DNA of 11,999 bases from Bdellovibrionales bacterium. Its GTDB lineage: Bacteria; Bdellovibrionota; Bdellovibrionia; Bdellovibrionales; UBA1609. A model generated the notes under the pieces. The model saw only the letters and a list, made by a program, of their open reading frames with translations, made no database searches and was not told where the DNA came from. Positions within the stretch are counted from its first letter, which is position 1; every line of letters starts with the position of its first letter. Both the position numbers and the translations under genes were made by a program. The stretch covers positions 1-11,999 of the forward strand of contig CBDATP010000001.1 in NCBI GenBank assembly GCA_965199825.1, given 5' to 3'. Positions 1-11,999 of the stretch are shown piece by piece.

Positions 1-90
1 GGCGTGATCGAAGAGAGTTATCCGTTTCTCGAGTGCGCGACCGGCTAAACCGCCTGGCCGCTCACCAACAATCAAAATCTGTACACTTCA
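1..90 (+). repeat. 3' end (U5) of an upstream LTR copy, truncated by the window edge
   Basis: Identical to 7519-7608. Ends in ...ACACTTCA, followed by AA and TGGTGGAGGCGCCGG. Confidence 0.93.
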
Positions 91-92
91 AA

Positions 93-107
93 TGGTGGAG
101 GCGCCGG
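93..107 (+). promoter_or_regulatory. Truncated tRNA-Ala primer-binding site (15 nt)
   Basis: TGGTGGAGGCGCCGG lies 2 nt after the LTR end. Identity with the second copy stops at 107/7625. Confidence 0.85.
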
Positions 108-129
108 TCTTTCCTAAAGTCCTTCCCGT

Positions 130-3100
130 TTGCTGATGAGACCGTTTGATAATGACATGGAAATCGCCCACGAAGGATTGAATTTCAAAGGAACAATTGA
201 TTTGGGTGTCCTCAGAGATCAAGGCTATGACCTGTTGATTGGCATGGATTTTATGACCCAAGTCGGCCTCATCATAGTAACACCACTCTCAACATTCATG
301 ATGAGGACCGATCTTGAGGAACTATTTCGCCAAAGTGGCCGATCGGTAGAAGACTTATCACAGAACTCATGGCAAACAAACACTGGTTTATCCACAAATA
401 AGGATACCGAACCTGAAACCCGACATATCAATCATATTTCAATCTCTGAAATTATTGATGACGATTTTGATAGAGAAGTTCGAAAGTGGACATTCCAACC
501 AAATGCAGATATCAAAACAGTCATCCAAGATGTGAGCCCGGTTCCAAATGCTAAAGAAGACGGACTATCGAACGAGAAGGAACCGTTTCCAGAAATAGAG
601 GCTCGGTGTCATACCGAATCTTTGAATTATTTCAAGCCAAGACAAATGAGACGAATTTCAGTGATTACAGATAAGCCGGTTCTCAAAACCTCCCTTGCAT
701 CAATCGATCCGGCTATGGCTGAAAAGAATTGGACGATTACTGAGGTTCTGATCCCGTCCGGAACAGATTCGTTTATTGTGTACGTCCGAAACGACTCACT
801 TAAAGCAAGATATCTGAATAGAAACGTCTCAATAGCTGTATTAGAAGATATCGACGATTCTTTGTGTGTCGAAATTCCTCCCCAAAACGAGAAGCCGAAG
901 AACTCTCGTAAACGGACTAAAAGACCAAAAACGTCTACAACCAATATTGATAAGAATCGGATCAACAACATAAATGAAGAGGTCTGGTCAGAAATAAATT
1001 CGTATCCATCGGCGTCCATGACGTTTTTCACCCAATATGAAAGAGAATTAAAAGAAGATGACCCGTATTTCTCTGATTGTATCGATCAAGAATTTCTAAA
1101 GGACTACGACGTCAGCCCGGATCTGATCCCTCGAGACCGATTGTTGATGCAAAGATATCTTCAGAATAATCGTGACATTTACGTATTCCCGGGTGACCCT
1201 CTAGGACGAGTAACGGTCTGGAAACATAAGATCCCGACTGGCGACCATCCGCCCATCAAACAAAACCCGTACCGTTTCTCGGAAGTTCAAAAAGCGGAAG
1301 TCGAAAAGCAAGTGTCCGAAATGATCAGACTGGGAGTCATAGTCCCAGCGGTCACTGGTTGGTCTTCTCCAGTCACCTTAGCTCCTAAGCGAGACGGGAC
1401 ATGGCGTTTCTGCATCGACTACCGCAGACTTAACGATATAACACGAAAAGACTCGTTTCCAATCCCGCGTCTCGACGAAGCTTTATCTGTTATGCGCGGA
1501 TGCGACCGATTCTCAGTGCAAGATGCACAATCTTGCTTTTGGCAAATCCCGATGCATAGGGATGACCAACCAAAGACAACTTTCACTTGCCATTTAGGAA
1601 CGTTTATGTTCCGAATGATGCCTTTTGGTCTCACAGGAGCACCTGCTAGCTGCGTCCGAGCAATGACCCGGATTTTCCATAACCTCGAAAGACGGATCGG
1701 ATTCATTTATATGGATGATCTAATATGTTTCTCCAAAGGCGTCGACGAACACATTCGAAGGTTAACAATTTTAGCAGAACGTTGCCGTAAATATGGCCTC
1801 AAGATGCGGGCGGACAAGTGCACATTTTGTTACCCAACCGTTTCTTATCTTGGCCATAAGATAAGTGGCGATAGAATCCGGCCCGATCTCGATAGGCACG
1901 CCGCAATACTCAAGAAACCGATACCCACTAATATCAAAGAACTCCAGTCATTTCTTGGCTTCGCGAACTTTTTTAGAACTTTTATCGTCAATTTCGCCCA
2001 TAAGGCTAAACCACTGACACAACTCCTTCGGAAAACAGTCAACTGGCATTGGGAAGCGGAGCAAGAGAAAGCTCACCAAGAACTCATTCAAGATCTGACC
2101 AATCCGCCGGTTTTGGCACACTATAATCCTGAGTCCGAAATAGAAGTAAGAGTGGACGCTTCTGATGAAGGACTGGGATGCGTCTTGGTCCAAGTCGACA
2201 AAGATGGAAAACGGCAACTACTCGCTGCCTATTCCCGCACATACTCGTCATACGAAGAGAACTATGCGATTACTCACAAAGAATGCCTTGGCATATTGTT
2301 CGGTATCCGTCAAGCTCGACCATACATTTTCGGCCGCCACTTCACAGTTGTGACTGACCATTGTGGTTTGTGTTTTTTAATGAAAGCTCGTGACCTAAGT
2401 GGCCGGCTCGCAAGATGGGCTCTGGAATTAGCCGAGTACGATTTTAAGATTTTGTATAACAGCGGTAAAACACACGGAGATGCCGATTTTCTTTCAAGGA
2501 ACATCAAGAAATGTAACATTCTGCATTCAGAGATTCGTTATCATGAAATTCAAAGGAACATGTCATTCGAACTGAGAACAAGACTAGAACCTGTTTCTGA
2601 ACAAATTATGCAGGAATGGAGTCCTCCAAACACAATGTGTAAACAGAAAGAAGACAACATATTGGGACCGATTATGAGAAAGTTATCCGGAGAAATAACG
2701 GTTAGCGAAAGAGAACGACAATCACTTGAAAAACGATATACGATCAAAAACGGACTTTTATTCCAAACATCAAAACAAGGACATAGAGAGGTTGATCGAC
2801 TATATATCCCTCGATCACTCATCAGGAATGTGCTCTATGTACTGCATGACTTGCCAACGGCTGGCCACTTCGGCTTTGCCAAGACTCTTTGGAAGGCAAG
2901 GCAATATTGCTTTTGGCCGTTCATGACCATAGATATTCTCGGTTACGTTAAATCGTGCCACGAATGCCAATTTAGAAAAATGCCCAATTCTAAACCCAAT
3001 GGGCCGCAACTCAAAACAACGCCGCTTTCCGATAACGTCATGAAAACGATTTCCATTGACTTAATCGGCCCACTCACACATACAGATGGCGACAATAGAT

Positions 3101-3993
3101 ATATCCTGACAATAACCGATCAGTTGAGCAAATTCGCCATTGCAGTACCCTTATATGAGACGAAAGACATTGATATTATGGACGCATTAGAACGGCACGT
3201 TTTCTATAGATATGGACCACCCGCCGTCTTACTTAGCGACCAAGGAAGAAATCTCTGTTCAAATAATTGTGAACGTTTTTACGAATCATGGGGAATAACA
3301 CACGTCACAACGACCCCCTACCATCCGTGTTCCAATGGACAATGTGAAAAATTTAATGGAACTTTGGCCGTTCTACTCGCAACTCAAATTAAGGGCGAAG
3401 ATGAAAGATGGGACGTTTTTGTTGACTCTGTCGTTTATTCTTATAATATGACCATATCGGCCAGCACCGGTTATAGCCCATTTTATCTTATGTTCGGCCG
3501 GCAAGTAGACTCACCACATATGATGAAATTAGGATGTCAATCCGCCGAGACAGCTCAAGGATCGGACATAATTCAAGATAGAAAACGAGCACTCGAAAGA
3601 ATGAAAACTGTCCAAGAACGGAACATGGAAACTGCCAATAAGAATCGTTCTCTTACGAATTTCAAAGTCGGAGATCTAGTTCTCCTGTTATCTCATCCCC
3701 TCTTGACACAAAGATCGGCCAAACTACACTATCGTTATTTGGGCCCATTTAAGATTTTGAAGAAATTATCTGAAAATGTGTTTGAAATTCAATGTTTGGA
3801 AGGGCGAAAACAAATCAAGATAATAAACGTCATCAATTTAAAGAAGTTTTATTCAAGAGACGATTTTCGACTTCAGTGCGAACGGGATGGCCCGATTATC
3901 GCACAAATTGATCAAATGTCACGTACACCTCCCTGTGGAGATTCCACCCTAGCTATGTGGCATTTCAACTTATACTATCTAACCATAAACTAA
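130..3993 (+). CDS. pol: Pol polyprotein, 5'-truncated (protease C-terminal half, reverse transcriptase, RNase H, integrase with GPY/F module)
   Basis: Protease C-half DLLIGMDF. RT motifs WRFCIDYRRLN, MPFGL and YMDD (1708-1719). RNase H DAS (2155-2163), KECLGI, TDH, ADFLSR. Integrase HHCC (H 2845, CHEC 2956-2967), SIDL / SDQG / NGQCE, and GPF (3742-3750). No D(T/S)G catalytic motif is visible. There is an in-frame TAA at 115-117 and the first ATG is at 136. Confidence 0.96.
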   Translation: MLMRPFDNDMEIAHEGLNFKGTIDLGVLRDQGYDLLIGMDFMTQVGLIIVTPLSTFMMRTDLEELFRQSGRSVEDLSQNSWQTNTGLSTNKDTEPETRHINHISISEIIDDDFDREVRKWTFQPNADIKTVIQDVSPVPNAKEDGLSNEKEPFPEIEARCHTESLNYFKPRQMRRISVITDKPVLKTSLASIDPAMAEKNWTITEVLIPSGTDSFIVYVRNDSLKARYLNRNVSIAVLEDIDDSLCVEIPPQNEKPKNSRKRTKRPKTSTTNIDKNRINNINEEVWSEINSYPSASMTFFTQYERELKEDDPYFSDCIDQEFLKDYDVSPDLIPRDRLLMQRYLQNNRDIYVFPGDPLGRVTVWKHKIPTGDHPPIKQNPYRFSEVQKAEVEKQVSEMIRLGVIVPAVTGWSSPVTLAPKRDGTWRFCIDYRRLNDITRKDSFPIPRLDEALSVMRGCDRFSVQDAQSCFWQIPMHRDDQPKTTFTCHLGTFMFRMMPFGLTGAPASCVRAMTRIFHNLERRIGFIYMDDLICFSKGVDEHIRRLTILAERCRKYGLKMRADKCTFCYPTVSYLGHKISGDRIRPDLDRHAAILKKPIPTNIKELQSFLGFANFFRTFIVNFAHKAKPLTQLLRKTVNWHWEAEQEKAHQELIQDLTNPPVLAHYNPESEIEVRVDASDEGLGCVLVQVDKDGKRQLLAAYSRTYSSYEENYAITHKECLGILFGIRQARPYIFGRHFTVVTDHCGLCFLMKARDLSGRLARWALELAEYDFKILYNSGKTHGDADFLSRNIKKCNILHSEIRYHEIQRNMSFELRTRLEPVSEQIMQEWSPPNTMCKQKEDNILGPIMRKLSGEITVSERERQSLEKRYTIKNGLLFQTSKQGHREVDRLYIPRSLIRNVLYVLHDLPTAGHFGFAKTLWKARQYCFWPFMTIDILGYVKSCHECQFRKMPNSKPNGPQLKTTPLSDNVMKTISIDLIGPLTHTDGDNRYILTITDQLSKFAIAVPLYETKDIDIMDALERHVFYRYGPPAVLLSDQGRNLCSNNCERFYESWGITHVTTTPYHPCSNGQCEKFNGTLAVLLATQIKGEDERWDVFVDSVVYSYNMTISASTGYSPFYLMFGRQVDSPHMMKLGCQSAETAQGSDIIQDRKRALERMKTVQERNMETANKNRSLTNFKVGDLVLLLSHPLLTQRSAKLHYRYLGPFKILKKLSENVFEIQCLEGRKQIKIINVINLKKFYSRDDFRLQCERDGPIIAQIDQMSRTPPCGDSTLAMWHFNLYYLTIN

Positions 3994-4176
3994 TGTGCAT
4001 GGACACGAGTTTATTAGCACGTCCTTCACCTTTCAATCATTTAATAATTGTTACAACACCAGAAAATTCATTTTAATATTCTCGATCCAAAATATTTCTA
4101 AAGTTACCGTTTTTCGAATTAGATTATTTATTGTGATCACAACAACTGCGATAAACCTATAAACAGAAAAGTCTAG

Positions 4177-4310
4177 TAGCGCCATCTGGTTGACGCTTCT
4201 TGACTTGTTAAAACACGTGCTCCCCTAGCAACCAATAGGCTTAACTCCCGCCATTGTTGTTGCTGTGCAATCTGTTATTTATATAGTCTTCGAGCACATT
4301 ATCATTAGTG
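4177..4310 (+). promoter_or_regulatory. Putative internal Pol II promoter/insulator for the extra ORF
   Basis: CTCF-like TAGCGCCATCTGGTTG (4177-4192), CACGTG (4214-4219), CCTAGCAAC/CCAAT (4224-4236), CCGCCAT (4248-4254), TATATAG (4280-4286) and Inr-like TCATT/TTAGT (4302-4309), in plausible order and spacing. Confidence 0.5.
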
Positions 4311-4574
4311 ACCACCAAAGTAGTCAATTTGAGTCCATTACCCGTTCAAACCTGTCCAACATCGTCGGTAAGACTAAATAAAGACTGCCATATATTCTGC
4401 CGATCACTCGGCCGGTTCCTAAACCTCATTTTCCCTTTGATGGTCGAAATTAATCCTTTCATTTGCAACTGATACTGATTAACCTTTACGGAGCGACTTC
4501 GGCATAAAACAAATCGAATTAAACGGTTATCCACCTGTACGAAGCAGTCTCCATCACCTGGCCGACGGTCAACG

Positions 4575-6587
4575 ATGAGCACAGAAACAATTAAAGCGGA
4601 TGGTGTGCCACATGTCCTTCTAGAGGTCGAAACCGGACCATCCCTTACTGTCACTGTTTCCGAAAATGACCTGAACCGAATTCTGCACTCGAAAGTGACC
4701 TCCGTTTCTGCAAGCGATAAACAAGATCCCATTTCTGAAAGTTTGACGATTAGACACACGGAAGAAGATCTAATCGATTTAGTGAAAGCATACAGAGACA
4801 CGATCCCTAATAGTGTTGAGAAACGGATCGAGAGCGCAGAAAGTGTCAGCCATATTCACCAAAAGATCGGCTCAAGCTATTTCCAAAGGAAACGAGAAGA
4901 TCTCATCCCAATCCGTGCGCTGAAAGATATTCGGGAGAAAATTTTCACGATCGAAAACGGAGACAATATTGCCGGTTCTCAAGAAGTCCAAGGAACGGTG
5001 CCAAATCTGAAAGTTATTTCAAGTAAAAGCGAGAACCATCCAGGCTTATATATAATGCGAGAACAGAAGATCATAGAAGCCCAAAGGCAGATCAACGCTC
5101 TATCAGAATCGCTCAAAAATATCATTGAAGTCCAAAAGGCGACCGTCACCCAATTACAAGAACTAACAGACGAATCTAAAAAAGTCATCCAACAATACGA
5201 TAAAGTCTACTCCGTCGCTGAAACCACATATGGAGAACTCATTGAAGTCATAGTTGCGGTCAAAAGTCACCTGATCAATAAGGAACGTCAACAAGAATCA
5301 GAAACCGGAGACAGTGCTCGAATCTTGGCGGTTTTTAATAAGTTCCTCGATAAAGTTGAAGATCTGAATGTCGCAGAAATCAGAAATACTCTAAATGAGG
5401 ACTTCGGAGAGAAGCGGTCGATTAAGACCAACATCGGAAACGTACAATCGAAAATGCCTGAAGAATCCGAGTCCAATGTGATTAGCCCAAAATCCGACAT
5501 CAGGAAACGGATTAGGACTGATCCAGAACTGAACATCGCAATGATTGAGCTATCGGAAAAAGAGCTGGAAACGATCTTCAGCGACAAAGACCAACAAGAT
5601 GATCTTCTCGGAGGTCCTGATGATGTTAGAAAGAGTCCCAGTAATGACCGAGAAGCTGACCAAAACCGGAATGATGCTGATGACGAATCCGACAAAATGT
5701 CAGAAAAAGAATCAGAAAACGGTCATCAACCTCATCAATCTCCTAAGGCACCATCAGTTAAAGAACCGTCACCTTTTACGTCTGGAAATAAGAAGGATGA
5801 CGATCAAGAAGATGAACCTGAGCTTAACCAAGTCACTCCGGCTGACAACAAGAAGCGGTCCCGAATACGAAATAGAACGAACGAAGAATTCTTCCCAATT
5901 TTCAAGTCAGACGGCAGACAATTAATAAAGAAAATTAATACCTATGGCGAATGGCTCAGGAAAGCCGCAAAGTTAGAGTTCCTTAAAAACCTAGCAGAGG
6001 ACGAATATGGTCAGGCCTTGGCCAAAGAAATGGCAAAGATTGACACAAAAGATAAGAACGCCGTCAAAAAGGTTGAGGAAGGTCTGACCGCTTTAGAAAA
6101 AAGAATGAAGAAGGCGCGGCTTAACTTCACTCAAACCATTCGACGTCTTCACAACCGGTGGGCTCTATTCAATGGATTTAACCCCAAATTCGCCCTAACA
6201 TACCTCCGAATGGAACCACCGTTTAAAAAGACGGACCAAATAAGAAAGGGCTTGAAGAAGAAAGATCGCGATAATGTCATTAAAATAGCCACCGGTAATC
6301 AGTATAAGTCTAACATTAAAAAGATCGAGACAGCGATCAAAGATGGTGAAGGTCAGATACAACCGTTTCCAACAGAAGAAGAAATCGAAAGATTCAGGGA
6401 CGGCCACTTCGATGGAGAACCGTCCGATGACGAAGATGAAGCGAATGAGTCCGAAAATGACGACCCGGCAGACGAAAGTGATGATGAATCGGTCAACGTG
6501 CACTCGAGCGGAAAAGGAAAACGCAAAAGTGGTCAATCTTATGGTCCGTCTCTTAAAGCTCAGAAAAGAGTATCCGATTCCGAGTGA
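4575..6587 (+). CDS. Retrotransposon accessory ORF of unknown function (670 aa), in the env position but not env-like
   Basis: Intact long ORF between pol and the PPT. Coiled-coil-like segment at about aa 160-240, acidic/disordered tracts, and basic clusters KKRSRIR and GKGKRK. No cysteine, signal peptide or transmembrane stretch is visible. Confidence 0.85.
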   Translation: MSTETIKADGVPHVLLEVETGPSLTVTVSENDLNRILHSKVTSVSASDKQDPISESLTIRHTEEDLIDLVKAYRDTIPNSVEKRIESAESVSHIHQKIGSSYFQRKREDLIPIRALKDIREKIFTIENGDNIAGSQEVQGTVPNLKVISSKSENHPGLYIMREQKIIEAQRQINALSESLKNIIEVQKATVTQLQELTDESKKVIQQYDKVYSVAETTYGELIEVIVAVKSHLINKERQQESETGDSARILAVFNKFLDKVEDLNVAEIRNTLNEDFGEKRSIKTNIGNVQSKMPEESESNVISPKSDIRKRIRTDPELNIAMIELSEKELETIFSDKDQQDDLLGGPDDVRKSPSNDREADQNRNDADDESDKMSEKESENGHQPHQSPKAPSVKEPSPFTSGNKKDDDQEDEPELNQVTPADNKKRSRIRNRTNEEFFPIFKSDGRQLIKKINTYGEWLRKAAKLEFLKNLAEDEYGQALAKEMAKIDTKDKNAVKKVEEGLTALEKRMKKARLNFTQTIRRLHNRWALFNGFNPKFALTYLRMEPPFKKTDQIRKGLKKKDRDNVIKIATGNQYKSNIKKIETAIKDGEGQIQPFPTEEEIERFRDGHFDGEPSDDEDEANESENDDPADESDDESVNVHSSGKGKRKSGQSYGPSLKAQKRVSDSE

Positions 6588-6916
6588 AAATTCTAAAGGA
6601 TAATAATTATTTCCGTCCATTTATCTCGAATTATTATTTCTTATTCCAGTATTTATAACTTATTCTATTATTAATGATGATTCAAAGTATTCCGTATCTA
6701 ATTCCAAGTTAAGCTGTTTTTCAAACGTCTATTATGAACGGACACTACCGTTTCTCTAATGATTAATTTACAGATATTTTGATGTTTTTTGGATATAATC
6801 CGTTTCTTTAGAACTTTCAAACGGTTCTTATTTTTTTCAGACTTGATTTTTCTATTATTCACAATTATTTATAATCCCGATCAATAATCTCAGAGCCGAG
6901 GAACCCTCCGTTTTTC

Positions 6917-6926
6917 GAAGGGGGGG
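6917..6926 (+). promoter_or_regulatory. Polypurine tract (plus-strand primer)
   Basis: GAAGGGGGGG lies 4 nt upstream of the LTR start TGAAG and is preceded by a T-run. Confidence 0.85.
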
Positions 6927-6930
6927 CAAT

Positions 6931-7608
6931 TGAAGAAGTAAGAATCGGCCCACTGTCGAGAGAGCTACTGCTACCACAGAAGCTCTCCTCTCTCGACAGT
7001 TTGGCCCGATTCCCGACAGGAGGCGCCACTGCTGAGCAAGCACGTGTTGTGTGTTGCTCCGCCATGCTGTCGGCACTCTGGTGTTTGGGCTCGACTCGAG
7101 CAGTCGACTTCCCGGCTAATGTTCTCTTAATTGTGATTCAGTTCTAGTTCTTTCTTGATTTGTTGACAATAAAGTGATTTATTAATTAAATCAAGTGTGT
7201 TACACTCGGCCACTGGCCGCTTTCAGCGATTAAGAAGACCATCGGAGACAACACAAAGAGAAGAACGCCGAGTGCCCACGACGACCATCAGAGCCGGCAT
7301 CTGATCTGCCGTTAGGGTCAACGACCAGCAGACATCTCCTCCGCGAAAAGCCGTAGCTTCAGGTAAGCCTGACGTTGGAGTGTCTCTTGCCGTTTCCCAG
7401 CATCAGTGGTGGAGGCCCGTTTTCGGGTATTTCTCGAAGAAATCTATAAGTCCTCAAGGAACGGCTTATCAAGATCGTGCTCCGAAACCGGGCATCAAAT
7501 GGTGTAAAGTCGTTCTCTGGCGTGATCGAAGAGAGTTATCCGTTTCTCGAGTGCGCGACCGGCTAAACCGCCTGGCCGCTCACCAACAATCAAAATCTGT
7601 ACACTTCA
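6931..7608 (+). repeat. Complete long terminal repeat, 678 bp
   Basis: TG...CA ends with a 5-bp terminal inverted repeat TGAAG/CTTCA. Flanked by the PPT upstream and the PBS downstream. The last 90 bp are repeated at 1-90. Confidence 0.92.
7138..7190 (+). promoter_or_regulatory. Putative R region: initiator and polyadenylation signal
   Basis: TCAGTT (7138-7143, arthropod-type Inr), AATAAA (7168-7173) and ATTAAA (7185-7190), followed by a GT-rich stretch. Confidence 0.55.
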
Positions 7609-7610
7609 AA

Positions 7611-7666
7611 TGGTGGAGGCGCCGGGTATCGATCCCGGTACCTCTCGCATTTATCAGCGAGCTCTT
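7611..7666 (+). promoter_or_regulatory. Extended primer-binding site complementary to the 3' part of tRNA-Ala including CCA
   Basis: The reverse complement reads AAGAG-CTCGC-TGATAAAT-GCGAG-AGGTA-CCGGG-ATCGATA-CCCGG-CGCCTCC-A-CCA. This corresponds to the anticodon arm, variable loop, T-arm and acceptor strand of a eukaryotic tRNA-Ala, matched to a consensus recalled from memory. Confidence 0.88.
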
Positions 7667-7731
7667 TCCAGGAGACGCAGCAGAAACTCGAAGAGACCAT
7701 AGAATTTAAGCGAAGCCAAAACGAATCGACC

Positions 7732-7926
7732 ATGAGATACGAAGATACCCTTGAGAAAATCATTGAAATGTTCAACGCTTTTTACGCTCGGGCTAAAGCA
7801 CACATAACTGAAATGAGTCGACAGTTGGATGAAGAGGTCGATGCATTAAATGCTAGCGACGAAGACCTCGACGATTTACTTCGGGGAATTCGACGAAGAA
7901 ATGAAAACCAAAACGCGACCGCCTGA
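7732..7926 (+). CDS. Small 64-aa helical ORF upstream of and overlapping gag
   Basis: First ATG after the PBS (ACCATGA context). Amphipathic helical pattern LEKIIEMFNAFYARAKAHITEMSRQLDEEV, then an acidic and a basic tail. Confidence 0.4.
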   Translation: MRYEDTLEKIIEMFNAFYARAKAHITEMSRQLDEEVDALNASDEDLDDLLRGIRRRNENQNATA

Positions 7927-9973
7927 GAGGAAAAATGCCGTCCCTCAAACTCCCAAAGAAACGGCACCACCTGAACAGACTCGTCAAATGCCGAAACCGA
8001 TTGTCAGTAAGGCTCAAATGGATGAATATTTTCAACGTAAACGACTGATAAGAGAAGAGCGAGAAAATAAGCACTTATTAGAACTGCAGGAAATGTCTAA
8101 AAAGATCAATGAACGTACAGCTCAGATACTAAGTCTACCGATCCGAGACCCTGCAGCTTTTAACGCCCGGTCGGCCTTTCCAAAAGTAACTCCGCCGCCC
8201 GTAGCCGGTTTTCAAATCCTTGATCACACTCCGAAGAGCCCCGAAAAACAGATTCAGAATCAGGAATCGGTTGGAGAGTCGACCACACTCCCGGTTTCTG
8301 AACAGATAATGAATCGAAAAACGACGAAAATTAAGAGTGTAGAGCGAGAAGATTTCGATCAAAGAATAAAGCAAAGACATATCGAAAAATGGAATTACCA
8401 TGTTCAAGGAATCAAAGCGCGGTTTGAGAGAGCTCAAGAAGTGGTCGCAAACCATCTTTTGAACATTGTTAAAAGTCCTATTTCTGTTGGACTAGAAACG
8501 GCGCATAAGAAATCTGCGTCCGTTTCTGAACAAGAACTGTTGGTGAACTGCCATTATAGGGCATCAATCCTTATCAAGATCATTGGAGAGAAGAATGACC
8601 GATGCAATATCCTGAGTAAAGCTATAAACGGCTTCCAGTTATCGGATGATTTTGATCCGGACGATGTCGAATTTCAAGATAATATTCGAGAATATTCAAA
8701 CCTTACGGATGAAATTATAAAGATGAGTCAAGAATTTGAAGCCATTCGTATACAACTCGAGGAAATTACCAATTATGCGGAAAGAGATCTGAAGGAACTG
8801 AAAGAACAAGTGAAAAGTTCAGTACGCATTAAACTGAAAACGGCTGCCGAAGAAAGATCTCCGAAGAATACTAGAGAACCCAAGGGTGACCGAATTTCAA
8901 AAAGAAAAGTTCAAGAGGTGGTCAAGAATAAAGGATCAGGAGTTGACTCGAATGGTCGGAACAGAAGACGTCCGATTCTAACGGATAGAGAGACCGTCTC
9001 CGGATTAGTTGGCCAGACACCGATTGAAACTGAAAAGAAAACCGAATCCGGAACGTCCGAACGAATCCTTTTATTAGAAAAGGAATTGGCGCAAGTTGTC
9101 TCACGCCTGACCGATATGAGCGATAAGAGCAGAAGTAATAATTCTTCATCAGACTCGGATAGGGATAAGAGCCCCAAAAAGGGAAAACATAAAAGTGACA
9201 AACGGCAGGACAATTCAATGATAACTAAAGATCAGAGCCAAAATATCGAGAAGAGAGGACGACGACCCAAAGAGGAAGGGTCCCGTTTCTCTAGATCAGG
9301 AAAAGACACCGTTTCTAGTAAAGTTGACAAATCCCAAAAAACGTCACCCAAGAAAACATCCGGACAAAAACGAAGTTCAGGTAGTCTTAAGACGCCGACC
9401 GAAGAGAAAAGCATCGGCAGTAAGAACGCTAGAAATTCGTCTGAAGACGAAGATGATCCCTCTGATGACGACCCAAGCGACGATGATGGACAAAGTGACA
9501 CAGTTCAAAAGAAGTCGAAAAAGCCTACGCATGAAAAACGGCCCGATATTCATACCTTCGAGGGTGGAGATGCGGGCGAAGCCACATTTTGGTTAAGGGC
9601 GTTTATCAATGCCACAGACACAATGAATTGGTCGAAAATAGATAAAGCAAAGAACTTTTCGACATACTTAACCGGATCAGCCCGGAAGTGGTTCACTAAT
9701 GAATTCGGTCTGAATCGGAAGCAATCACTCGAAGAATTTCTCGACCCGAAGCCGATCAAATGGAAGAAAATCCTGACCGCTTTCTATCAACATTATCTTA
9801 GTGATGCCTCCTGTGCCCACTTCATTGACGACTTCAACAATTTTACACCGAAGTCCGATGAGAAATGGACGGATATGTGCCAACGCTATTGGAGCCAAGA
9901 GCTCGCTGATAAATGCGAGAGGTACCGGGATCGATACCCGGCGCCTCCACCATTTGAAGTGTACAGATTTTGA
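7850..9973 (+). CDS. gag: Gag polyprotein with long N-terminal extension; authentic sequence ends at about 9896 and the remainder is read from an inverted PBS/U5 copy
   Basis: Located after the LTR and PBS. Ty3/Gypsy capsid-like pattern TFEGGDAGEATFWLRAF...NW...YLTGSARKWF...WKKILTAFYQHY at about 9550-9795. No CCHC knuckle is reached. The true start may be the ATG at 7901. Confidence 0.85.
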   Translation: MLATKTSTIYFGEFDEEMKTKTRPPERKNAVPQTPKETAPPEQTRQMPKPIVSKAQMDEYFQRKRLIREERENKHLLELQEMSKKINERTAQILSLPIRDPAAFNARSAFPKVTPPPVAGFQILDHTPKSPEKQIQNQESVGESTTLPVSEQIMNRKTTKIKSVEREDFDQRIKQRHIEKWNYHVQGIKARFERAQEVVANHLLNIVKSPISVGLETAHKKSASVSEQELLVNCHYRASILIKIIGEKNDRCNILSKAINGFQLSDDFDPDDVEFQDNIREYSNLTDEIIKMSQEFEAIRIQLEEITNYAERDLKELKEQVKSSVRIKLKTAAEERSPKNTREPKGDRISKRKVQEVVKNKGSGVDSNGRNRRRPILTDRETVSGLVGQTPIETEKKTESGTSERILLLEKELAQVVSRLTDMSDKSRSNNSSSDSDRDKSPKKGKHKSDKRQDNSMITKDQSQNIEKRGRRPKEEGSRFSRSGKDTVSSKVDKSQKTSPKKTSGQKRSSGSLKTPTEEKSIGSKNARNSSEDEDDPSDDDPSDDDGQSDTVQKKSKKPTHEKRPDIHTFEGGDAGEATFWLRAFINATDTMNWSKIDKAKNFSTYLTGSARKWFTNEFGLNRKQSLEEFLDPKPIKWKKILTAFYQHYLSDASCAHFIDDFNNFTPKSDEKWTDMCQRYWSQELADKCERYRDRYPAPPPFEVYRF
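9897..9952 (+). pseudogene. tRNA-Ala-like 3' fragment with encoded CCA (inverted PBS, not a functional tRNA gene)
   Basis: T-arm CCGGG/CCCGG with loop ATCGATA, anticodon stem CTCGC/GCGAG, ending CCTCCACCA. It lacks the 5' acceptor strand and a full D-arm, and has an 8-nt loop. Confidence 0.7.
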
Positions 9974-10001
9974 TTGTTGGTGAGCGGCCAGGCGGTTTAG
10001 C
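9897..10001 (-). repeat. Inverted 105-bp copy of the LTR end plus extended PBS
   Basis: Exact reverse complement of 7562-7666. Confidence 0.95.
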
Positions 10002-11622
10002 TGAGCTACCGGAAGAATTCTAGAAAGAATAAAAATCTGAAATAATTATCATAGACACTCCTCGTGATTCTCTATCGAATGAGCTTTATGAAATTTCGAT
10101 TAAAAAATTCCTTCTATTTATTATGAATTATCAAAGTTTTGGTAAGGAATTAACTTTAATTTATATAAAATACTTAGAATTTTTCAATGACAACAATGAT
10201 GGTACTGTTGAGTACAACTTTGTCAATGGTTTCAACAATGAGTATCAAAAGATTTTCGCTGATCATTATTAAGCCACAATTAGACATTAAGTTACTCTCG
10301 CATGACCACTTGAAAAGTTTTTGAGCTACCGGAAGAATTCTAGAAAGAATAAAAATCTGAAATAATTATCATAGACACTCCTCGTGATTCTCTATCGAAT
10401 GAGCTTTATGAAATTTCGATTAAAAAATTCCTTCTATTTATTATGAATTATCAAAGTTTTGGTAAGGAATTAACTTTAATTTATATAAAATACTTAGAAT
10501 TTTTCAATGACAACAATGATGGTACTGTTGAGTACAACTTTGTCAATGGTTTCAACAATGAGTATCAAAAGATTTTCGCTGATCATTATTAAGCCACAAT
10601 TAGACATTAAGTTACTCTCGCATGACCACTTGAAAAGTTTTTGAGCTACCGGAAGAATTCTAGAAAGAATAAAAATCTGAAATAATTATCATAGACACTC
10701 CTCGTGATTCTCTATCGAATGAGCTTTATGAAATTTCGATTAAAAAATTCCTTCTATTTATTATGAATTATCAAAGTTTTGGTAAGGAATTAACTTTAAT
10801 TTATATAAAATACTTAGAATTTTTCAATGACAACAATGATGGTACTGTTGAGTACAACTTTGTCAATGGTTTCAACAATGAGTATCAAAAGATTTTCGCT
10901 GATCATTATTAAGCCACAATTAGACATTAAGTTACTCTCGCATGACCACTTGAAAATTTTTTGAGCTACCGGAAGAATTCTAGAAAGAATAAAAATCTGA
11001 AATAATTATCATAGACACTCCTCGTGATTCTCTATCGAATGAGCTTTATGAAATTTCGATTAAAAAATTCCTTCTATTTATTATGAATTATCAAAGTTTT
11101 GGTAAGGAATTAACTTTAATTTATATAAAATACTTAGAATTTTTCAATGACAACAATGATGGTACTGTTGAGTACAACTTTGTCAATGGTTTCAACAATG
11201 AGTATCAAAAGATTTTCGCTGATCATTATTAAGCCACAATTAGACATTAAGTTACTCTCGCATGACCACTTGAAAAGTTTTTGAGCTACCGGAAGAATTC
11301 TAGAAAGAATAAAAATCTGAAATAATTATCATAGACACTCCTCGTGATTCTCTATCGAATGAGCTTTATGAAATTTCGATTAAAAAATTCCTTCTATTTA
11401 TTATGAATTATCAAAGTTTTGGTAAGGAATTAACTTTAATTTATATAAAATACTTAGAATTTTTCAATGACAACAATGATGGTACTGTTGAGTACAACTT
11501 TGTCAATGGTTTCAACAATGAGTATCAAAAGATTTTTCCTGCTCATCGTTGACCCACACTTAGACTATTAGTTACTTTCGAAAAAGTTTTTGAGCTACCG
11601 GAAGAATTCTAGAAAGAATAAA
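10002..11622. repeat. AT-rich tandem repeat (satellite-like), 320-bp monomer, about 5.1 copies
   Basis: Units start TGAGCTACCGGAAGAATTC at 10002, 10322, 10642, 10962, 11282 and 11591. The first four are near-identical (one G>T seen at 10957). The fifth diverges after about 11536 and is 309 bp. The sixth is partial. Confidence 0.97.
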
Positions 11623-11999
11623 TAATATCAATATAATTTAGGATTAACTTTGGGAAGGAAATGAAATTTTTCCAGGTAAGGAATTTAAGGTATTGTGTAA
11701 AACTGCAATTTTAATAATTTTTATTGTTACATTTTTCCCTTTAATTGGAGGGAGATGGATTTTTCAATCACTTTGTTCTCTGCCTGAAGTATAAAGTAAA
11801 TATTCCAAATAAAAAATGTTAATACTGTGATAGATTCATGGGCAAGAAGTACAGTTATGACTTTATTAGAAACAACTTGTCAATAGAGGGCTCTGACTAC
11901 GCGCAAAGTTCGATAACCGGATAACTTTGCCTCGCTTATTTCTCAGTGTTTTGTGTTTGTATATGCTGGGGATAACTAAGGGAGTTCGGCAAATACCGA

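Follow-up and report, generated by a model that had tools for sequence, protein, structure and literature searches.

A 670-codon, very probably selected non-env gene downstream of pol in a Ty3/Gypsy LTR retrotransposon

The bdelloid rotifer Ty3/Gypsy elements Vesta and Juno carry a family-specific, non-env ORF3 between pol and the 3' LTR, and the third open reading frames (ORFs) of such elements are typically made from spliced messages, according to the extracts of PMC5408684 used here. The element described in this paper resembles them, as far as those extracts go: its additional ORF (also designated ORF3) lies on the same strand after pol and is not env, its Gag is of the CCHC type, and the ORF is absent in some branches. 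However, the rotifer ORF3s portrayed there encode a GDSL esterase, a DEDDy exonuclease or a TM/coiled-coil protein of 210–230 aa, whereas the protein found here has ~670 aa and contains neither a transmembrane (TM) segment nor an enzyme domain.

A second system is CERV, encoded by Cer1 of C. elegans, which is nuclear and needed for the export of unspliced genomic RNA (PMC10309623, in the sections drawn on here). As described in those sections, CERV resembles ORF3 in being a large accessory protein of orphan type whose Ty3/Gypsy element has a single gag-pol frame, and in combining flexibly linked ordered domains, a coiled coil, a basic candidate nuclear localisation signal (NLS) and fast divergence; its spliced message has a presumed counterpart in ORF3. 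The same description sets the two apart, since CERV shares exons with gag and has a Cys loop and a G-protein-like domain, whereas ORF3 follows pol, is nearly Cys-free and is all-helical in its model. ORF3 does not belong to the CERV family, being a separate frame after pol without similarity to the Gag N-terminus and without an alpha/beta domain in the model.

The env proteins of errantiviruses (F-type and gB-type) occupy the same position after pol and are of similar length; however, as characterised in the available text of PMC13524379, they have a signal peptide, a TM anchor, a furin site and Cys, all of which ORF3 lacks. Finally, the plant Retand/Grande elements contain conserved additional ORFs (TRP28) in the interval between pol and the 3' LTR, for which a regulatory role has been proposed, but these are mostly antisense and have a TRP28 domain in the extracts of PMC11963269 and PMC7264820, whereas ORF3 is sense and gave no such Pfam match. 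ORF3 falls outside the CERV, GDSL/DEDDy and TRP28 groups. Since non-env ORFs of rotifers and plants are already in print, the kind itself is not rare. The ORF3 family appears to be new, conserved non-env extra ORFs as a kind being already known, and the literature searched holds no description of it (Repbase, GyDB and subscription journals lay outside that search).

The contig and its retrotransposon

The DNA analysed here (the window) is a whole contig of 11,999 nucleotides, contig C2 of a five-contig assembly of which the main contig of 2.78 Mb is bacterial, with 38 tRNAs and a tmRNA. An assembly-wide comparison revealed no sequence shared between C2 and the other four contigs. No further copy of the element was found elsewhere in the assembly, and none of 60 related bacterial genomes contained it (0/60). 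Because C2 is unlike the other contigs, a Helitron is present on contig C5 and the 60 bacterial genomes lack the element, C2 is eukaryotic DNA that was binned by accident with the bacterial genome. C5 is a eukaryotic contig like C2; its Helitron is tandemly repeated and has a Rep-helicase frame of 2,370 codons. On contigs C3 (with a repeat period of about 3.45 kb) and C4 no ORF reaches 150 aa; these two could be eukaryotic as well. The contamination score of the assembly is 0.11% despite the eukaryotic C2 and C5.

Two of the samples listed as containing DNA of the element are lichen metagenomes (the ORF3 content of sequencing run X3 was confirmed), and the best named reverse transcriptase (RT) relatives are arachnid proteins with 33–47% identity, from which we infer that the host is likely to be a small invertebrate. 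At 10002–11638 the window contains an unstranded, AT-rich tandem repeat of the host, with 5 copies of 320 nt. In run X1 the summed contig depth of this repeat was about 12,000, versus 3–5 for ORF3, a value that is not a copy number.

The element is a Ty3/Gypsy LTR retrotransposon. Pfam matches in pol follow the order protease, RT, RNase H and integrase, as in Ty3/Gypsy, and the LTR has TG...CA ends, with a polypurine tract before it and a primer-binding site (PBS) after it. Two tandem copies are present with one LTR between them. Of the upstream LTR of the first copy only 90 nt remain: region 1–107 (plus strand) consists of its 3' end (1–90) and the first 15 nt of the PBS (93–107), and is a 100% repeat of 7519–7625. 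Then follows a deletion in which gag and the N-terminal half of the protease are lost; an X1 contig (78–2907) spans this junction. The pol frame (118–3993, plus strand) encodes the C-terminal half of the protease, RT, RNase H and an integrase with H2C2, rve and C-terminal SH3-like parts (Pfam), and aligns to residues ~1076–2322 of the single Gag-Pol frame of the relative P0128. It is followed on the plus strand by a non-coding spacer of 581 nt (3994–4574), with only weak candidate splice acceptors and an upstream ORF of 10 codons (4440–4472), by ORF3 (4575–6587), by an AT-rich UTR and by the polypurine tract (6917–6926, from sequence).

The LTR common to the two copies (6931–7608, plus strand, 678 nt) contains, on the same strand, an initiator-like TCAGT (7138), an AATAAA (7168) and a consensus 5' splice site (7362/7363, matching AG/GTRAG). 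The LTR begins with a strong hairpin (6942–7012, plus strand; z = -4.0, 0/200 shuffles as stable), which would lie close to the 3' end of genomic RNA and is a candidate cis-acting element.

The long PBS (7611–7650, plus strand) is complementary to a tRNA 3' end; its 7611–7638 part (28 nt) matches, on the minus strand, the T-arm, acceptor strand and CCA of a tRNA-like domain, with E 0.049 and a score that falls short of the gathering threshold. We take the pairing to extend over ~40 nt, with tRNA-Ala, and to end at tRNA position 37, presumably the modified base of eukaryotic tRNA-Ala at which plus-strand synthesis, as if having run past position 58, stops. In the extracts of PMC7264820 the usual pairing is 10–20 nt, so that ~40 nt here would be twice that, and nothing on long primer-binding sites like 7611–7650 was present in the literature searched, including the consulted part of PMC10886601.

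The second copy is headed by this LTR and the long PBS and contains a gag in two frames (7567–9896, plus strand; frames 7567–7926 and 7850–9973), identified by homology to P0004, P0021 and P0128 and cut inside the capsid region. At the truncation the LTR end and PBS (7562–7666) recur in inverted orientation at 9897–10001 on the minus strand, beside the host satellite, and an X1 contig (7867–9950) crosses the junction of gag and the inverted piece. With a first copy that lacks gag and a second that is truncated, both copies are defective; ORF3 is nevertheless intact. In this clade Gag has an N-terminal extension of 600–790 aa that comprises two helical blocks as well as basic/acidic tracts of low complexity (7567–9500 in the window; also P0004, P0021, P0128 and P0143), which gave no convincing Pfam match and diverges at the pace of ORF3.

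The nearest relatives of Pol, with 75–88% identity in RT-RNase H, are ENA proteins without a name, and the next tiers have 52–60% and 33–47%. A quick RT tree was made with 59 rows (all 26 rows with at least 50% identity and a one-in-three sample of the remaining 97), all of them unnamed or auto-named proteins. In this tree the window RT fell in a 15-row clade (SH-aLRT 100) nested in a 26-row clade (98). Full-length members of the clade encode Gag-Pol as a single frame of about 2,250–2,380 aa, in which Gag carries a CCHC knuckle and is greatly extended at its N-terminus. The preliminary description, made from the sequence of the window, had compared the element with errantiviruses; given the single long gag-pol frame and CCHC knuckle of its close relatives, this was the wrong baseline. 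Its suggestion of an undescribed Gypsy lineage holds in part: the clade that contains the RT is well supported and made up of unnamed proteins, but ORF3 is tied to only one of the other subfamilies and a variant without ORF3 exists.

When JGI, GTDB and IMG/VR contigs were scanned, using ORF3, integrase or the RT alignment as the query, no clade member with DNA was recovered; 79 loci were obtained at only 33–44% identity, and none of them matched the ORF3 profile (0/79). Two distant Gypsy elements, at loci L013 (after 5410) and L020 (after 5624), have frames of 645 and 539 codons, respectively, just past the pol match. These frames contain cysteine, are non-hydrophobic and have no ORF3-profile match; they may be extensions of Pol.

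ORF3 and its protein family

ORF3 runs from ATG to TGA (4575–6587, plus strand) and encodes 670 residues with 0 internal stops, within a stop-to-stop frame of 4479–6587. With this base composition, 670 open codons would arise by chance with a probability of about 1.5e-18, and 20–68 stops are present in each of the other five frames. Codon-usage likeness to pol (r 0.63) was uninformative as evidence, as an off-frame control gave r 0.66. Run X1, possibly the source run, covers 3866–6651 with 0 differences, run X3 of another study contains three pieces of ORF3 with 0 differences, and run X5 of a third study contains two pieces with 1 difference each. The occurrence of ORF3 DNA in runs of separate studies shows that it is not an assembly accident. 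Run X4 covers only 38 nt, upstream of ORF3, and run X7 covers none of the region. In RNA run X9 0 reads matched, even on the host repeat, so that this run says nothing about expression of ORF3.

A recount of the protein bore out its first characterisation in full: 670 open codons, zero Cys, no signal or TM segment, a coiled coil, acidic tracts and basic clusters. The 0 cysteines compare with 12.6 expected from base composition, but this is not family-wide, as the five homologues checked carry 1–2. The highest 19-residue hydropathy (1.14) lies inside the coiled coil, and neither an N-terminal hydrophobic stretch nor an R-x-K/R-R site was found. In a hydropathy scan of six family proteins the 19-residue maximum was 1.01–1.29, without a TM or signal stretch in 6/6; the furin site R-x-K/R-R was present in 0/6, and Cys numbered 0–2 each. 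Because ORF3 has no Cys, signal peptide, TM segment or furin site, it is not env, in agreement with the preliminary description.

No match to an env Pfam family or a class I/III fusogen fold was obtained (E 0.001 in BFVD and PDB, no Z of at least 8; the N-terminal half was poorly modelled). Pfam, PHROGs and PDB sequence searches with ORF3 gave no match, nor did Pfam searches with 12 members, which also covered SGNH hydrolase and DEDDy exonuclease; the model is all-helical.

The single-sequence structure model was poor (pLDDT 40), and with 13 sequences the mean was 51.7. In the N-terminal part, helical conserved blocks (aa 10–130; 4602–4964, plus strand) were modelled with a pLDDT mostly <60; their identities are 22/36 and 45/75 to P0156, and 20/36 and 36/74 to P0165. 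They are followed by the coiled coil (aa 163–239; 5061–5291, plus strand), which AlphaFold predicts as a single long helix (pLDDT about 70) and which contains a conserved Y..AE...GEL.E block; over aa 150–245, 59% of the heptad a/d positions are hydrophobic in the best register. The acidic, fast-changing linker (aa 291–424; 5445–5846, plus strand; net charge -18) is predicted to be disordered, as is the tail, with a pLDDT <50 and about 19% identity to relatives. Within it, aa 317–337 (5523–5585) form a short acidic-hydrophobic, helix-forming motif that recurs in P0156 and P0165 and could bind a partner.

Just before the C-domain lies a basic NLS-like motif (aa 426–434; 5850–5876, plus strand), a putative NLS kept in all three groups of the family: K427, R430, R432 and R434 are identical in P0001, P0165 and P0176. 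The net charge is +6 over aa 425–436 and +17 over aa 437–590. The basic C-domain (aa 441–610; 5895–6404, plus strand) was modelled by AlphaFold with a pLDDT of 75–89 over most of its length as a long helical hairpin (helices 447–488 and 494–535) and a small helical bundle. It contains the motifs KIN.Y..W and R.LH.RW..F..F...FA, and its net charge is +17 in ORF3 and +15 and +14 in relatives. The protein ends with an acidic tract (aa 613–640, charge -16 by charge count) and a short basic tail (641–670), together at 6411–6584 on the plus strand; the acidic tail is also present in P0165, P0176 and P0158. AlphaFold and the alignment thus place the ordered parts about where they had been proposed (aa 60–280 and 435–610).

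Foldseek searches against BFVD and PDB gave no match at E 0.001, with the N-terminal half poorly modelled. Using VIA-align against 48,161 chains, 0 chains reached a Z of at least 8, and only generic hairpins were matched, over residues 443–580 (Z up to 7.4). On these predicted models the fold searches establish the C-domain neither as a known nor as a new fold, and barely cover the N-terminal half.

Word-indexed protein searches found no ORF3 relative and the Protein Atlas gave no usable match. A full HMMER scan returned 7 matches besides the query, 4 of them at E under 1e-30 (P0156, 42%; P0157, 34%; P0158, 52%; P0159, 38%) and the remaining three weak. Full-length relatives have 670–696 aa at 21–35% identity, with fragments up to 52%; among them are P0165 (696 aa, 35%) and P0176/P0177 (675/670 aa, 21–24% depending on the alignment method). 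The near and sister groups are homologous along their length (hhalign 99.2% over 495 columns). The coiled coil, the basic NLS-like motif, the basic helical C-domain and the acidic tail recur within the family. ORF3 thus occurs in three diverged groups, none of them named, with 14 members in the sister (distant) cluster, as a conserved additional ORF and not as a one-off transduced host gene.

To link ORF3 to Pol, contig sizes were compared. The 14 sister-cluster ORF3s fall on contigs of 12 sizes, 6 of which match sister Pol (P0005/P0128) contigs among the 10 sizes listed (15 of the 29 members of this Pol cluster are listed). None matched the 27 other Pol contigs, nor two further ones. This is strong but indirect evidence that sister ORF3 and sister Pol share contigs, and, together with the homologue search, it upholds the proposal that the homologues go with this RT clade. 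No ORF3 homologue was tied to the P0006 (0/9 contigs) or P0020 (0/5) subfamilies, and the nearer homologues showed no tie to any Pol examined. Identity to the sister family is 84% for RT-RNase H, 48% for the capsid part, 27% for the Gag N-terminus and 24% for ORF3. That ORF3 diverges like the Gag N-terminus, while RT-RNase H remains at 84%, fits co-descent, and these comparisons suggest that ORF3 has long belonged to the element and evolves fast within it. Similarity of ORF3 to the long Gag N-terminus was no better than in shuffled or reversed controls, and ORF3 was rejected as a duplicate of it; an internal repeat was likewise rejected after comparison of the ORF3 halves.

Variation and loss of ORF3

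Identity to the nearer relatives is mostly 38–61% in the N-terminal blocks, the coiled coil and the C-domain, and about 19% in the linker. Two copies of the sister family differ at 18/102 linker versus 11/392 ordered sites (Fisher p = 6e-7), with block borders set from the models and the alignment before this count. Among the near-identical copies in run X2, 5/15 ORF3 changes are synonymous versus 21–29% expected under neutrality (p 0.19–0.45), and 8/10 replacement changes fall in the linker or tail; the SNPs among near copies are not different from neutral. Contigs of X2 break off inside ORF3 at 5277 and 6326.

A variant that is 10–14% diverged was present in X1 and X2 (one study). In this variant 4007 is joined to 6504 with 38 other letters between them, so that nearly all of ORF3 is lacking, but the last codons and the stop are kept; 4/7 listed changes are synonymous (p 0.06–0.13). 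The retained end codons and stop fit loss by deletion. The variant may be non-autonomous, and its existence indicates that ORF3 is not needed in cis. With full-length relatives and block-wise conservation, ORF3 is a real conserved gene, as had been proposed, and in our view it is very probably an accessory gene, distinct from env, that is under selection.

Possible roles of ORF3

The most likely role is that of a nuclear helper of the element, either Rev/CERV-like or acting at the level of chromatin. HIV Rev, like CERV, helps unspliced element RNA to accumulate or to leave the nucleus. Our first, though tentative, choice is that ORF3 encodes a soluble, helical, non-env accessory protein that would act on the element's own unspliced RNA. 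Its message would be spliced from the LTR donor (7362/7363) to an acceptor before ORF3. The protein would enter the nucleus through the conserved basic motif and self-associate through the coiled coil; the basic C-domain would bind nucleic acid, namely the unspliced RNA of the element, while the acidic linker and tail would contact partners. In this way ORF3 could help unspliced element RNA to accumulate or to exit the nucleus.

The LTR donor is the only AG/GTRAG match on the plus strand of 1–10000, and no ATG is present between the initiator-like site (7138) and the donor, which makes a spliced ORF3 message plausible. In addition, since Gag-Pol is a single frame in the relatives, unspliced RNA is required despite a donor near the 5' end. 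The RNA-level role is placed first because export would suit a protein that combines a coiled coil with a basic motif and a basic helical domain, both of them conserved. Against a spliced message, the best acceptor candidates have 57–71% pyrimidines and most lie before the short upstream ORF. Against RNA export, CERV is Cys-rich, has a G-like domain and overlaps gag, and ORF3 has none of these three features; in addition, no nuclear export signal proved to be conserved. High-depth related LTR contigs (X2 and X3) have an insertion inside the donor, showing that the donor is not universal among relatives.

Nearly as likely as the RNA-level role, and doubtful like it, is a helper at the chromatin level, with the basic C-domain on LTR DNA or nucleosomes and the acidic tracts serving as an activation or histone-chaperone surface that would keep the element transcribed against host silencing. 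This is the reading favoured by the preliminary description; the nuclear location, anti-silencing, chromatin or histone binding and trans-activation put forward there are candidate properties derived from composition and one conserved basic motif. The conservation of the basic motif, the basic C-domain and the acidic tracts would suit such a protein, and the extra ORFs of plant Retand elements have been proposed to encode DNA-binding regulators (PMC11963269, in the extract used). However, neither Pfam nor PDB sequence and fold searches revealed a known domain that binds DNA or histones. The rapid change of the linker would be in keeping with a conflict with the host, but relaxed constraint produces it as well. 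A single HP1-binding PxVxL (aa 12–16) was rejected as a candidate motif, as it is not kept in place in P0156, P0165 and P0176.

Unlikely, in our judgement, is a cytoplasmic scaffold, in the form of a coiled-coil RNA chaperone, a part of particles or RNP granules, or a filament-forming membrane shaper that aids the spread of non-enveloped particles from cell to cell. ESCRT-III proteins have a basic helical hairpin and an acidic tail, and a 2025 bioRxiv preprint (2025.03.14.642691) reportedly describes env-less cell-to-cell spread in the mdg1 clade. The model of ORF3 has a long coiled coil and a basic hairpin, and ESCRT-III chains recur among the weak matches: CdvB2 had Foldseek rank 1 (E 0.65), and Vps24 and Asgard ESCRT-IIIB scored Z 6.2–6.3 over 96–100 residues, covering the hairpin only. 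However, unrelated helical hairpins reach similar scores, with 0 chains at a Z of at least 8, no Snf7-type Pfam match was obtained in 12 members, and the conserved basic motif lies outside the fold, as expected of a localisation signal. Env-less spread within the mdg1 clade is known from the part of PMC13269885 drawn on here.

That ORF3 is a mere passenger of no use to the element, whether captured from a host or virus or left over from a decayed env, is very improbable: the neutral-looking SNPs in near copies, the ORF3-less variant and the lack of homologues tied to P0006 (0/9) or P0020 (0/5) would agree with it, but frames of 670–696 codons stay open across 21–35% identity with conservation in ordered blocks, protein and fold searches gave no host or viral homologue, no member checked has an env feature, and the variant, with its last codons and stop and 4/7 synonymous changes (p 0.06–0.13), fits deletion. 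The probability remaining beyond these four readings belongs to other roles.

A third ORF in a Gypsy element is often classified as env solely because of where it lies, and the ORF3 family offers a large, conserved, soluble alternative. Its C-domain is compact and suited to expression and testing. It is possible, though far from certain, that this basic helical domain is an undescribed nucleic-acid-binding module in a nuclear regulator that occupies the env slot, either an independent Rev/CERV-type exporter or an anti-silencer, usable in trans by partners without gag or without ORF3. If so, it would be a rare counter-measure of an animal retrotransposon to host RNA surveillance. Among the accessory proteins of LTR retrotransposons in animals, few besides CERV have been assigned a function; should ORF3 turn out to export unspliced RNA or to block silencing, this would reveal a way in which such elements escape nuclear retention or piRNA-type control.
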